From Myxococcales bacterium (lineage in GTDB: Bacteria; Myxococcota; UBA727; JABDBI01), in NCBI GenBank assembly GCA_023248595.1, contig JAHFEG010000003.1:42051-106050 (forward strand): a DNA stretch of 64,000 bases, given 5' to 3'. Under the pieces are notes generated by a model. That model made no database searches. It was not told the DNA's origin and saw only the letters and a program-made list of their open reading frames with translations. Position numbers and translations under genes: made by a program. Shown here one piece after another: positions 32,701 through 34,324 of this stretch; position 1 is the stretch's first letter; every line of letters begins with the position of its first letter.

Positions 32701-32734
32701 GGAGATTCTTTCATAGAGCTGTGTGAATGGCAAA
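32701..32734. repeat. 34-bp direct repeat, copy 1 (flanks AbiE module)
   Basis: ggagattctttcatagagctgtgtgaatggcaaa; 33/34 identical to 34291-34324. Confidence 0.75.
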
Positions 32735-32790
32735 TGCTTCACTATTTTTTGGCAAGTTAGTACTGGTTAGACGATAACAAGCGAGATTTT

Positions 32791-33660
32791 CTATTTCTTT
32801 GCGTACTCCACCATTTGGATATCAAGTTCTCGCAAATTCACAAGAAGCGCGTGCCATGCCTCGTCAAAAGAAATTTTGTTTTCATTGGAGATAATTCCGT
32901 CCCAGGCTAAGCGCAAAACACCGGGTTGAAATTCCTTGACCAAAGCCCAAAACGAATTTGGCTCTAGAGTCTCCCTGTTCTTGAAAGTGTTTCTGATTGC
33001 TTTTACAAGGGGTTGAGTGTTTTTGCATCGTGGAAAAAGTATAACCAAGTCATAAATATCTTTCCCTCGCGAATTTGCCGAGGCTCTTTTGCAAAGAGTT
33101 TCAAGCTTTTCTGCAAACATTTGCTCCGGCGGATAAACATACCACGAAATCGGCTCCGTGCCTGCTAGTAGAGGCGTCATCATTTCTCGTTTGGGTTTGA
33201 CCTCGAGCCTATCGCTAAACGCAACATCGATATGAATTCGAGAGAGCTTCTTCAGTTCACCGTCTCTAGCTGGAGCGTCGCCAAGCTGATAAGCACAGTC
33301 AAATCGAAATCCTCCGTAGGTCTGATCAGACATCAAGTCATCGGTCTTCACATCGCCAAACCAGAATCCATCCTTTAAGTCTGCTCTTAAAGCTTGAACG
33401 ACCAAATGAGGGACGCTTTCCTTTGGGAGAGAGAAAGCTAAAGCATCGACGTCTCTTGTAAATCGGGATGACTCGATGGTTTTCAAAAGGGCAAATCCAC
33501 CTTTAAAGATCAAATGCTCACTGAGAACGGGATGGTGCTCTAGCCTTGCGACAATTCGTTCGAGCGCCATAAGCACCCGTAAATGATTGAAAGAAAAATT
33601 GCCACTTGCGAGCTTTTTTAATGCTGTCGTCACTTCAGCTACTTTTTTTGATTGGGTCAC
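32791..33660 (-). CDS. abiEii: AbiEii/AbiGii-family nucleotidyltransferase toxin (DUF1814)
   Basis: FKGGFALL...RFTRDVDALAF motif; 4-nt overlap with upstream abiEi. Confidence 0.75.
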   Translation of the reverse strand: MTQSKKVAEVTTALKKLASGNFSFNHLRVLMALERIVARLEHHPVLSEHLIFKGGFALLKTIESSRFTRDVDALAFSLPKESVPHLVVQALRADLKDGFWFGDVKTDDLMSDQTYGGFRFDCAYQLGDAPARDGELKKLSRIHIDVAFSDRLEVKPKREMMTPLLAGTEPISWYVYPPEQMFAEKLETLCKRASANSRGKDIYDLVILFPRCKNTQPLVKAIRNTFKNRETLEPNSFWALVKEFQPGVLRLAWDGIISNENKISFDEAWHALLVNLRELDIQMVEYAKK

Positions 33661-34235
33661 GCGAGCACCTCAATAACCGGTAAAATTCTATGGAAGACGT
33701 TAAGCCTGACAGCCATATCCGCAACCTTTGCCAACGTCGTTTTCTTTTGATTAATGGCGGTCCTTAGAGATTCGATTCCAATCATCTTACTCATTTGTCG
33801 GTGATAGATGAGGGATTCCACTAAGGTTCGCTCTAACGAAGTAATCTTGAAGCCATCTTCTTTATTAATTCCGATTTTCCATTGCGGATCGGTCATTCGA
33901 ATCAGCTTAAGGCCTTTTTGGCTTGTTCGTTTCTTTTTATTAACTAATAGCCAAGTCTCTTTCGGGATGAGGTCTGTGAGATGATAGTAGACTAGCGCAG
34001 ATAGCAAACATATTGCACTTTGTTCACCGACTCTTAACACAGCGGCTTGGAACTGTTGATATTCATTGTAGTCCGCTTGAGGAACTCGATAAACGCCACG
34101 TTCAAGGCGTTCTAAAGAACCGTCCTTTAGCCACCGAGAAAGTTGATAACGCGCAACACCGTGCTGCTCGGCTTGTTTGCTCGAGAATGAAATTTTTCTC
34201 AAAGGCCTAGGTATTTTCATGGCAAGAGACGACAT
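33657..34235 (-). CDS. abiEi: AbiEi-family antitoxin / transcriptional regulator (N-terminal wHTH)
   Basis: GVARYQLSRWLKDGSLERLERGVYRV AbiEi_4-like N-terminal domain; operon with abiEii. Confidence 0.7.
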   Translation of the reverse strand: MSSLAMKIPRPLRKISFSSKQAEQHGVARYQLSRWLKDGSLERLERGVYRVPQADYNEYQQFQAAVLRVGEQSAICLLSALVYYHLTDLIPKETWLLVNKKKRTSQKGLKLIRMTDPQWKIGINKEDGFKITSLERTLVESLIYHRQMSKMIGIESLRTAINQKKTTLAKVADMAVRLNVFHRILPVIEVLA

Positions 34236-34245
34236 GCTTCAAATA

Positions 34246-34269
34246 TGACATTTTTTAAAAAATTTGTCA
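34246..34269. promoter_or_regulatory. Near-perfect 24-bp AT-rich palindrome (TGACA-AT run-TGTCA) in abiEi promoter region; candidate AbiEi operator overlapping a TTGACA -35
   Basis: tgacattttttaaaaaatttgtca immediately upstream of abiEi start. Confidence 0.4.
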
Positions 34270-34290
34270 AATTTGTAGCAATTTCGTTAG

Positions 34291-34324
34291 GGAGACTCTT
34301 TCATAGAGCTGTGTGAATGGCAAA
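34291..34324. repeat. 34-bp direct repeat, copy 2 (flanks AbiE module)
   Basis: ggagactctttcatagagctgtgtgaatggcaaa. Confidence 0.75.

Follow-up and report, generated by a model that had tools for sequence, protein, structure and literature searches.

An AbiE toxin-antitoxin unit bracketed by copies of a promoter-like host sequence

Introduction

How stand-alone defence and toxin-antitoxin modules enter chromosomes outside recognisable mobile elements is poorly understood. Toxin-antitoxin modules are common cargo of CIMEs and IMEs and of integron cassettes. The only recombinase-free signature that has been described is insertion with long target duplication, known from RM gene complexes (Nobusato et al. 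2000, Gene 259:99; Furuta, Abe & Kobayashi 2010, PMC2853133; PMC3874152) and so far tied to RM systems and, tentatively, to DNA cutting. The repeats that bracket these complexes are 45-420 bp of unique host sequence, often over the 3' ends of neighbouring genes (PMC2853133; PMC3874152), and they are single in genomes without the insert, which provides two-sided empty sites (PMC2853133). Furuta et al. proposed that the process depends on a property common to RM systems, for example double-strand breakage (PMC2853133); an experimentally established mechanism for long target duplication was not found in the literature consulted.

The locus described here lies in a 64-kb window (the whole stretch of DNA that was analysed) and resembles the RM insertions in that a complete post-segregational-killing module without a mobility gene is placed in ordinary chromosomal DNA, between direct repeats of host sequence (>30 bp, with no further copy in the window) whose length and sequence differ between events. 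It departs from them in its cargo, a type IV toxin-antitoxin/Abi module without a DNA-cleaving enzyme, in its duplicated target, a promoter-like element, and in its empty-site evidence, which is one-sided. Since AbiE encodes no DNA-cleaving enzyme, the idea of double-strand breakage put forward for RM systems cannot apply here.

With the AbiE systems of S. agalactiae and L. lactis (Dy et al. 2014, PMC3985639) the locus shares a bicistronic abiEi-abiEii arrangement, a wHTH antitoxin, inverted repeats in the promoter and an NTase toxin of the DUF1814 family in which the GG and DxD motifs are conserved. Identity to these systems is only distant, and the presumed operator in the window is a single palindrome directly at the start codon, unlike theirs. 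The characterised AbiE systems are found on an ICE or a plasmid, whereas the one in the window stands alone in housekeeping DNA. A further reference on these AbiE systems, besides Dy et al., is Hampton et al. (PMC7319586). The locus is also similar to CIMEs and IMEs (PMC5704250) and to integron toxin-antitoxin cassettes in being small, recombinase-less cargo bounded by direct repeats, but it differs from them in having no shared att or attC site, hairpin, array, integrase or tRNA target. We here present evidence that the abiE unit is an insertion bracketed by duplicated sequence, and argue that it probably entered by insertion with long target duplication.

Results

The abiE genes lie between two direct repeats, DR-L and DR-R, in the following setting.

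30520-32649: glyQ/glyS, the flank left of the cassette
32650-32698, no strand: junction from the glyS stop to DR-L; homology to the sister strain L007 (cydA side) ends about 14 nt left of DR-L
32699-32734, plus strand: DR-L, left repeat copy, 36 nt, identical in sequence to the L007 copy upstream of cydA
32735-32790, minus strand: 56-nt tail of the inserted unit, 3' of the abiEii stop codon
32791-33660, minus strand: abiEii, DUF1814 nucleotidyltransferase toxin, 289 aa, GTG start (from profile matches and alignment)
33657-34235, minus strand: abiEi, antitoxin/autorepressor, 192 aa (187 aa from the second ATG), with an N-terminal wHTH (AbiEi_4)
34242-34270, minus strand: putative abiE promoter, TTGACA-17-CATATT, 10/12, TG present, overlapping a near-palindrome
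34271-34288, minus strand: end of the unit between DR-R and the operator palindrome, about 17 nt
34289-34324, plus strand: DR-R, right repeat copy, with one difference from DR-L (T>C at 34296)
34441-35433: bestrophin gene, the flank right of the cassette
35442-35517: tRNA-Gly(CCC), 1.1 kb from the right repeat

In the 64-kb window the pattern GGAGAYTCTTTCATAGAGCTGTGTGAATGGCAAA matches only at 32701-32734 and 34291-34324 when up to three mismatches are allowed, and 0 matches are expected from 100 shuffles. The repeat grows by 2 nt to the left, giving 36 nt with 35/36 identical (32699-32734 against 34289-34324), beyond which the likeness is AT-rich and non-significant. The copies are spaced 1590 nt apart and lie 56 and 55 nt from the coding ends, and the inserted unit between them (32735-34288, 1554 bp) consists of the promoter, abiEi and abiEii. 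Measured by the features used by Furuta et al. 2010 (direct repeats of >30 bp, a complete module in an insert of <20 kb, no mobility gene), the repeats are 36 nt at 35/36, the whole module is contained in the 1554 bp between them, and the two genes inside are accompanied by no match to integrase, transposase or recombinase families among the window ORFs scanned. The repeat has no significant structure (z -0.2 to -0.8) and lies outside tRNA-Gly. A weak dyad, TTCA-N10-TGAA, is present within it.

AbiEii matches PF08843 with 104.2 bits (cut-off 22.5) over profile positions 5-234 of 238 and the PADLOC AbiEii profile with 141 bits, and it retains 44/44 columns that are invariant in an alignment of 26 homologues, including G54, G55, D70, D72, D145, D150 and D204. 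The L007 protein has lost several of these positions (G54S, D150Y) and carries a 39-aa deletion. AbiEi matches PF13338 with 41.9 bits (cut-off 25) and, over its full length (residues 17-191), the PADLOC AbiEi profile with 113.7 bits; against the NCBIfam equivalog TAA_AbiEi it scores 17.5 bits where the cut-off is 150, which places it in a distant subfamily. The two genes overlap by 4 nt (GTGA), no other credible gene was found between the repeats among ORFs of at least 50 aa, and the composition of the cassette has no GC or skew anomaly. An earlier note on this DNA had described an AbiEi/AbiEii pair overlapping by 4 nt as a discrete two-gene unit 1.1 kb from tRNA-Gly with no recombinase inside, between 33/34-identical repeats that lie about 56 bp outside the coding ends. 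The profiles and the pattern search bear this description out, with the repeat being 36 nt long and the 1.1 kb applying to its right copy.

The module is self-contained and apparently functional, and from its homology with the S. agalactiae and L. lactis counterparts it is predicted to work in abortive infection as a type IV toxin-antitoxin. By homology with the characterised systems, AbiEi would repress the operon and neutralise AbiEii, and AbiEii, as a GTP-dependent DUF1814 nucleotidyltransferase, would arrest growth once it is released by phage infection or loss of the module. The near-palindrome TGACAAATTTTTTAAAAAATGTCA at 34246-34269 overlaps the putative abiE promoter, a strong one of the sigma-70 type, and is presumed to be the AbiEi operator, a concept taken from the inverted repeats that AbiEi binds in the AbiE promoter (PMC3985639). 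The layout TTGACAC..GTGTCAA stands directly before abiEi in all homologous loci inspected, and since the palindrome abuts the start codon, the abiE mRNA is apparently leaderless.

The repeat-AbiE-repeat structure is also found in L001, an independent assembly of the same strain (99.97% identity), and in the sister strain L007, and it is hence no assembly artefact. In L007 the order is bestrophin, DR-R, abiEi, abiEii, DR-L and cydA (370 bits), with a cassette that is 94% identical to that of the window and with about 22 nt between the end of DR-L and the cydA ATG. The window and L007 have the same DR-L sequence while the adjoining DNA is 6-12% different, and DR-R has one private change in each of the two, which indicates that the ancestral repeat copies were identical. 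The insertion site between glyS and a bestrophin gene, as given in the earlier note, is therefore correct for the present state but not historically, given that cydA takes the place of glyS in L007.

In L006, a relative without this AbiE, a single copy of the site (26/34, with 6e-5 expected by chance) stands at the corresponding position upstream of cydA, and the left flank of this copy is homologous (score 44 vs a null maximum of 12). Together with the cydA-side copy in L007, this single copy identifies the repeat as a duplicated host target. L006 was rejected as a clean empty site, given that 377/500 shuffles score as well as its right flank does against the right flank of DR-R, and no two-sided empty site was found among the relatives compared. 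The search for an empty site that had been suggested earlier is thus answered on one side, by a single copy with a homologous left flank, but not on the other.

In the sister lineage L002, an unrelated AbiE pair (43-48% aa identity) is inserted in the same site, and the left half of DR-L with the preceding 15 nt is found directly after glyS (0/1000 shuffles reach the score). The region 3' of glyS is a recurrent insertion point, in agreement with the earlier suggestion of a hotspot, and for one 36-nt site to have received AbiE twice independently (window/L007 and L002) is more than a purely random process would predict, so that targeting may be involved. By GlyS (77-81%), the window, L002 and L006 are about equally distant from one another, and the order of events is therefore not fixed. 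The possibility that a relic gene 3' end forms the repeat (minus strand ...AL*, like the end of a 98-aa ORF in L002) was discarded, with both L007 and L006 placing the repeat upstream of cydA.

On its minus strand DR-L contains a sigma-70-like TTGCCA-17 nt-AAGAAT with an extended -10 TG (32733>32705), called by a promoter scan for which promoter-like sites are only about twice as frequent as in shuffles. The scanner calls the same elements, TTGCCA-17-AAGAAT and TG, at the L006 site. The 8 differences between the window and L006 sites miss all 14 promoter positions (p=0.007, for an argument made post hoc), and 5/8 fall in the promoter spacer. Hence, the repeat looks like the core promoter of cydA, an assignment that is putative and made by consensus match. 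In DR-R, the T>C at 34296 turns the -10 from AAGAAT into AAGAGT, and this copy consequently fails the promoter scan. A reading of the repeat as a Rex, FNR or CRP-type operator was set aside, the half-site arrangement being unconvincing by eye.

The close coincidence of repeat and core-promoter-like element, and the perfect conservation of DR-L in diverged surroundings, would also suit a functional promoter or regulatory duplication, or repeats that pre-existed and were kept by selection or gene conversion, in which case the insertion did not make them. We give this explanation very little credence: L006 has one copy only and L002 a single partial copy, the repeats that bracket other loci are gene 3' ends and terminators rather than promoters, and the mutated -10 of DR-R leaves that copy under no obvious constraint.

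The geometry of the locus is not unique to it. In about 32 unrelated metagenomic AbiE loci, a sample that mixes classes (the L045 repeat is strongly structured, z=-6.5, and L054, L040 and L015 are multi-copy repeat arrays), 4-7 are bracketed in the same way by unique, host-derived repeats of 40-97 nt. Those of L019 (42 nt), L043 (93 nt), L045 (87 nt) and L059 (97 nt) score 42-82 vs a null maximum of 14.5, with a repeat spacing of 1527-1595 nt in the first three and 1987 in L059, vs 1590 nt in the window, and in two further loci, L030 (40 nt) and L056 (46 nt), the repeats enclose one ORF besides AbiE. Scores in an inverted-orientation control do not exceed 14, and the same geometry occurs in 1/89 placements elsewhere in the same contigs (Fisher p=0.005-0.017), a background of AbiE-containing contigs that is not neutral. 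The repeats are host sequence, with a hipA stop codon in one case, the final 31 codons of a gene for an ABC-binding protein in another and a relE stop codon in a third.

The distance from repeat to operator is about 17 nt in the window vs 5-17 nt in the other bracketed loci. A DNA comparison of cassettes between hosts was abandoned as a means to map their ends, the cassettes being too diverged; only the operators of L043 and L045 align, 5-18 nt after DR1. Identical copies of the AbiEii proteins P0253 and P0252 did not turn out to have different surroundings: one setting was seen for each (prophage tail-module moron; MGE-like island), and neither had repeats.

Two further inserts in the same window are bracketed by repeats, an HTH_36 gene (60 nt) and an nfeD-SPFH pair (86 nt). 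At the start of the nfeD-SPFH insert stand 69 nt of a foreign yceG, a fragment of the kind that capture of random donor DNA should leave; the repeat copies of this insert are 97% identical and the accompanying yceG fragment 83%. Across the other AbiE loci and the window inserts, the bracketing repeats all differ in sequence and length, from 36 to 275 nt, which argues against any one pair of recombinase and site.

The earlier note had offered the repeat as a possible att core for a trans-acting recombinase. The unit would then be a non-autonomous, CIME-like cassette with the 36-mer as the attL/attR core, on which a tyrosine or serine recombinase from another locus would act. The size of the direct repeats is typical of attL/attR, L002 was hit independently at the same site, a tRNA gene is 1.1 kb away and the repeat contains the dyad, weak as it is. 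We nevertheless regard the proposal as very unlikely. The 36-mer is host sequence upstream of cydA and single in L006, it is not in a tRNA and has no significant structure, and the window ORFs scanned include no recombinase. The repeat is confined to this locus within the window, and exact and degenerate scans gave 0 matches in GTDB representative genomes, JGI metagenome contigs and IMG/VR, three collections from which the source genome and its relatives are absent; the search for the 34-mer that the earlier note had advised produced no copy outside this locus in the window and none in these collections. The truncated donor gene in the nfeD-SPFH insert is also at odds with site-specific recombination, which would give a precise end.

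An integron-type reading of the whole phenomenon was rejected for the two-copy cases, the repeat in the window being 36 nt, unstructured and present in two copies only, whereas it may apply to the multi-copy arrays in L054, L040 and L015, which may be of the CIME or integron kind. The ends of the unit have no inverted repeats and the duplication is 36 bp, which sets the locus apart from transposon- and MITE-like elements (terminal inverted repeats and a target duplication of <15 bp). No blastn match places the cassette on plasmids or phages, tblastn of plasmids returned matches of about 30% identity only, none in Enterobacteriaceae, and Rfam has no family that matches the repeat or the cassette, with tRNA-Gly alone reaching significance in the stretch searched.

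Insertion with long target duplication would account for the locus as follows. The 1554-bp unit would have been inserted, without a recombinase of its own, at the promoter-like site just upstream of cydA, and about 36 bp of the target would have been duplicated to leave one copy on each side. The duplicated segment would begin shortly before the -35 of the putative cydAB promoter and extend a few bases beyond its -10; cydAB would thereby have kept a promoter copy in DR-L while DR-R was left upstream of abiE's own promoter. The duplication would be older than the split of the window strain and L007. Later, either cydBA may have been lost in the window lineage, stranding DR-L beside glyS, or the cassette may have moved into a cydBA-less relative by recombination through flanking homology. 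For the duplication we infer a host-mediated, sequence-independent process, for which the repair of either a staggered break or a gap, or template switching while captured linear DNA is copied in, are candidate routes. Repeat-flanked inserts would be prone to deletion by recombination between the repeats, and as the loss of addiction modules such as AbiE and RM systems kills cells, these modules would be over-represented among the surviving inserts.

A Campbell-type integration deserves more weight than the other alternatives, although we still think it unlikely. Here, a circle with AbiE and one 36-bp site would have recombined with the chromosomal site via RecA to give site-cassette-site. Such a circle could be a donor fragment that had closed on itself, or the product of repeat-by-repeat excision in a related cell. 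On this view the repeat served as the region of homology, with no duplication at a break, and the cassette would be passed between relatives that have the site in common. According to Furuta et al., naturally competent species account for most of their cases. Left of the same cassette stands cydA in L007 and glyS in the window, and the glyS-site junction is common to L002, observations that are easily explained by transfer through flanking homology. Between the two L043 repeat copies the changes are largely synonymous, which would suit the origin of one copy in a diverged homologue, yet the count (6/12 differences synonymous) fits target duplication and a donor homologue alike. The foreign yceG fragment abuts the nfeD-SPFH repeat in the X..Y-X'..Y' layout expected of circle integration, but repeats at 97% are hard to reconcile with yceG at 83% if both stem from a single diverged donor. 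Moreover, a homology of 36 bp is barely long enough for RecA-dependent exchange, the origin of the first repeat-flanked copy is left unexplained, and no circular form or excised site was seen, the only other contigs with these exact proteins being filled.

Discussion

AbiE is a well-known system, and this particular repeat is no reusable handle: the earlier note had hoped that it would lead to other cassettes, but the other repeat-bracketed inserts in the window use unrelated repeats. What the locus adds concerns the route of entry. A nuclease-free AbiE with the same signature as RM insertions, recurring at unrelated AbiE loci and in the window, speaks against the nuclease-based idea, and the recurrence suggests that a process of the host acts together with selection for addictive cargo. 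Long target duplication might therefore be a general, nuclease-independent, host-mediated and recombinase-free entry route for small modules, with addiction modules enriched, a generalisation that we put forward tentatively and hold to be somewhat doubtful at this breadth.

If it is true, the route would be used by AbiE, by AAA_14/DUF4143 ATPases (toxin-antitoxin/defence) and by ordinary pairs such as nfeD-SPFH, it would have left its scar in about one AbiE locus per five to eight, and the window lineage would have used it repeatedly, with at least three brackets in 64 kb. The enrichment of addiction modules among survivors would then follow from the lethality of loss by repeat recombination. 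Unique flanking repeats of at least 30 bp, derived from neighbouring gene ends or promoters, provide a searchable criterion to date and delimit such insertions. Locally, an insertion of this kind can duplicate a putative promoter, by which the downstream cydAB would stay expressed.

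Results

The AbiE cassette consists of two overlapping genes, whose identities in the earlier note are borne out by profile matches:
32791–33660, minus strand, abiEii (PF08843, 104 bits; PADLOC AbiEii, 141 bits)
33657–34235, minus strand, abiEi (PF13338, 42 bits; full-length PADLOC AbiEi, 114 bits)

No other credible ORF is found between the repeat copies. The genes overlap by 4 nt (GTGA) and end 56 and 55 nt from the repeats, in agreement with that note, which also placed the neighbouring glyQ/glyS, bestrophin and tRNA-Gly(CCC) genes correctly. The 34-mer it described occurs exactly twice in the window (32701–32734 and 34291–34324), with no further copy at up to three mismatches; by chance, no copy would be expected. 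Identity runs 2 nt further left, giving a 36-nt repeat (35/36 identical) with a left copy, DR-L (32699–32734), and a right copy, DR-R (34289–34324). The bracket is real: the repeat-AbiE-repeat structure recurs in L001, a separately assembled sequence of this strain (99.97% identical).

When the toxin is aligned with 25 homologues, it keeps 44/44 invariant columns, the GG and DxD motifs among them. abiEi is immediately preceded by a strong promoter match (TTGACA-17-CATATT and TG, 10/12) that overlaps the near-palindrome TGACAAATTTTTTAAAAAATGTCA, and a TTGACAC-N10-12-GTGTCAA palindrome abuts the abiEi start codon at all homologous loci inspected. This layout fits the autoregulation of S. agalactiae AbiEi via promoter inverted repeats (PMC3985639). 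Toxicity, neutralisation and phage exclusion are expected of the window's pair from family membership. The cassette has no compositional anomaly and, taken singly, the locus is an ordinary defence module.

The lineage is sparsely sampled, with the nearest GlyS relatives at 80% (L002–L005) and 77% (L006) identity and all others below 60%. The sister strain L007, represented by a contig of 2.6 kb, carries a cassette 94% identical to the window's in the order bestrophin start, DR-R, abiEi, abiEii, DR-L, cydA. The flanking gene is CydA from the N-terminus onward (370 bits), and DR-L ends about 22 nt before its ATG, with a GGGGA ribosome-binding site between. In L006, a relative with the order glyS-cydB-cydA and no AbiE, a single copy of the site (26/34; 6e-5 expected by chance) precedes cydA at the equivalent position, its left flank homologous to the window's. 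The repeat thus stems from the host, with one copy where this AbiE is absent and two where it is present. Between the window and L007 DR-L does not differ, and the DR-R of each carries a single private substitution; hence the ancestral copies were identical and the duplication is older than the split of the two strains. The L007 toxin (AbiEii at 833–1585) is decaying: its GG motif has the change G54S, D150Y is a further substitution, and an in-frame loss of 39 aa takes away five invariant residues. The abiEi gene is intact; this resembles toxin inactivation inside a retained toxin–antitoxin (TA) locus.

In the relative L002, glyS is followed directly by the 15-nt left flank and the site's left half (score reached in 0/1000 shuffles). 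Another insert breaks up the site there: a split APH-like gene together with an AbiE pair that has 43–48% identity to the window's pair, which is no nearer than family members taken at random. This independent insertion at the same site is mainly what keeps alive a site-specific recombinase acting in trans, which we consider very improbable. No integrase, transposase or recombinase family matched among the window ORFs scanned, the unit carries no inverted repeats at its ends, and its DNA matched no sequenced plasmid or phage. The proposal that the repeat is an att core is not supported: the 36-mer is confined to one locus in the 64 kb, has no significant secondary structure (and no Rfam match), lies outside tRNA-Gly and is accompanied by no recombinase among the scanned ORFs. 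Nor does the 34-mer serve as a handle for finding other cassettes, as had been suggested, with no other copy of it or of the 36-mer in the 64-kb window; GTDB representative genomes, JGI contigs and IMG/VR gave no match either, which is weak evidence as these collections lack this lineage. The repeat is probably an insertion scar of host promoter-like DNA.

Read on the strand of cydA, the repeat gives TTGCCA-17 nt-AAGAAT plus an extended -10 TG; a promoter scan calls this element in DR-L as well as in the L006 copy. The window and L006 sites differ at eight positions, none of them among the 14 promoter positions (p = 0.007) and five in the spacer. Consensus match and conservation pattern thus make the repeat look like the cydA core promoter. 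If so, the duplication spans about -37 to +8 and cydAB would still have had a promoter after insertion. Pre-existing or selected promoter copies would give two such sites with no duplication at insertion, and this is likewise very improbable. In the DR-R of the window the substitution leaves AAGAGT as the -10 hexamer, and the scan no longer calls this copy.

In the window, 35 nt of spacer separate glyS from the left flank of DR-L, and homology to L007 stops 14 nt left of DR-L. Either cydBA was deleted in the window lineage or the cassette entered a cydBA-less relative through recombination, with the site as one point of exchange and bestrophin as the other. With GlyS identities of 77–81%, the three lineages are equidistant, which favours neither alternative. 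With cydBA absent, the promoter-like DR-L (32705–32733, minus strand) points into the 3' end of glyS, a gene of the other strand, and might give rise to antisense transcription; the scan called no terminator-like site in the interval.

Among metagenome contigs we surveyed 68 loci with AbiEii relatives (39–56% identity), comparing the 450 nt that precede abiEi with the 450 nt that follow abiEii (about 32 independent loci with usable flanks). Four loci had bracketing repeats with local-alignment scores of 42–82 against a null maximum of 14.5; L010 was marginal and the remaining loci were at null level. A wider-spacing scan added two loci, each with one extra ORF inside the bracket.

Direct repeats bracketing AbiE in other organisms (locus; repeat length; identity; spacing; character)
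L019; 42 nt; perfect; 1527 nt; spans hipA stop codon
L043; 93 nt; 87%; 1594 nt; last 31 codons of convergent ABC-binding-protein gene
L045; 87 nt; 98%; 1595 nt; strongly structured (z = -6.5), unlike the window's
L059; 97 nt; 93%; 1987 nt (wider); end of an ATPase element
L030 (wider scan); 40 nt; perfect; spans relE-type stop codon
L056 (wider scan); 46 nt; downstream of aspS

The inverted orientation gave a maximum of 14, and the same geometry elsewhere in the same contigs a shared word of at least 15 nt in 1/89 placements (Fisher p = 0.005–0.017). Spacing in three of the first four is close to the window's 1590 nt, and the upstream copy ends 38–61 nt before abiEi, that is, 5–17 nt before the operator palindrome. 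The repeats of different loci are mutually unrelated host sequence. The L059 arrangement is nested (2937–6842): a 275-nt duplication with an AAA_14/DUF4143 ATPase gene lies between UDG (uracil-DNA glycosylase) and epimerase genes, and AbiE is inserted into the end of this element.

The multi-copy arrays at L054, L040 and L015 are of a different kind from these two-copy duplications. In L054 (1537–8567) a ~190-nt intergenic repeat, too long for a typical attC, occurs in four copies (84% mean column identity) and separates successive small cassettes, AbiE among them. AbiE also occurs without flanking repeats, for example as a moron-like pair on the opposite strand between prophage tape-measure and tail-assembly-chaperone genes (L077, 2429–3846).

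Scanning the whole window for long repeat pairs around gene-sized segments revealed further brackets:
41532–42383, minus strand, HTH_36 gene; 60-nt repeats at 41434–41493 and 42446–42505, 93% identical
56153–57577, nfeD-SPFH (SPFH/Band-7) pair; bracket region 55875–57688, 86-nt duplication, 97% identical

The first lies between convergent aldo-keto-reductase and caleosin genes, and its repeat contains a hairpin, ATGGTCGG..CCGACCAT, that is probably their shared terminator; a perfect palindrome, GCAAATTGTTTTT/AAAAACAATTTGC, adjoins the right copy. The 86-nt duplication comprises the 3' ends of icd and of a 1141-aa ORF, which overlap, and both genes keep their ends intact. This insert starts with a 69-nt foreign yceG fragment (55958–56026), 83% identical to the resident yceG (52179–52247) and still translating as KLQAEPGVIYSIDNYDGNIRK, which looks like capture of a random piece of donor DNA, not a precise site-specific cassette end. 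The main rival reading, Campbell-type integration of circular DNA with the site on it, would explain this donor-gene fragment and the two left contexts of the cassette; it leaves the first event unexplained, and we regard it as unlikely.

Discussion

'Insertion with long target duplication' is known for restriction–modification (RM) gene complexes, with no other mobile element (PMC2853133; Nobusato et al. 2000). These cases are bracketed by unique direct repeats of >30 bp (45–420 bp), often overlapping neighbouring gene ends and single in the empty-site genome (PMC2853133). By the criteria of Furuta et al., the window locus has a complete module of fitting size, a repeat >30 bp and no mobility gene, with two 36-mer copies in the 64 kb of genome covered. 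The empty-site comparison proposed in the earlier note holds on one side, through L006 and its homologous left flank; no two-sided empty site was found among the relatives, where L006 and L002 have single or partial copies.

We favour, with some reserve, an insertion that was independent of any recombinase and in which host repair or replication duplicated about 36 bp of target, retention being aided by addiction. A staggered break or gap would arise at the target, host repair or replication would duplicate ~36 bp, and the unit would enter without a recombinase, leaving a target copy on each side. Loss through repeat recombination would be lethal, so that the addiction module would be kept. 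For RM systems, Furuta et al. proposed that the process needs a property common to them, such as double-strand breakage (PMC2853133). AbiE has no such activity. A review describes long target duplication in RM systems, with no extension to TA systems (PMC3874152), the paper on AbiE records its carriage on mobile elements and says nothing of flanking repeats (PMC3985639), and our literature search found no report of it for AbiE or other TA modules. Recurrence of the RM-type signature for AbiE in unrelated organisms, and around other genes in the same window, is more interesting than the single locus.

The glyS–tRNA-Gly interval is a variable hotspot. In L002 the split APH-like phosphotransferase pseudogene and the different AbiE pair (10139–12560) adjoin the tRNA-Gly 3' end, and the bestrophin gene and flanking repeats are both absent. 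L008 (1–818) shows a further variant: a truncated bestrophin gene, of which the last 190 codons remain, is joined to 211 nt that are unrelated in sequence and lack a Pfam match, and tRNA-Gly follows the gene. Pfam gave no match (E<=1e-3 or 1e-5) for four large window ORFs: 1930–2910 (326 aa), 21812–23914 (700 aa), 25866–26876 (336 aa) and 52512–55937 (1141 aa). Genes for an ankyrin-repeat protein (36975–37562), a caleosin/EF-hand protein (42522–43223) and, in L002, a TLC ATP/ADP translocase (15771–16997) hint at a host-associated or intracellular lifestyle of the lineage.
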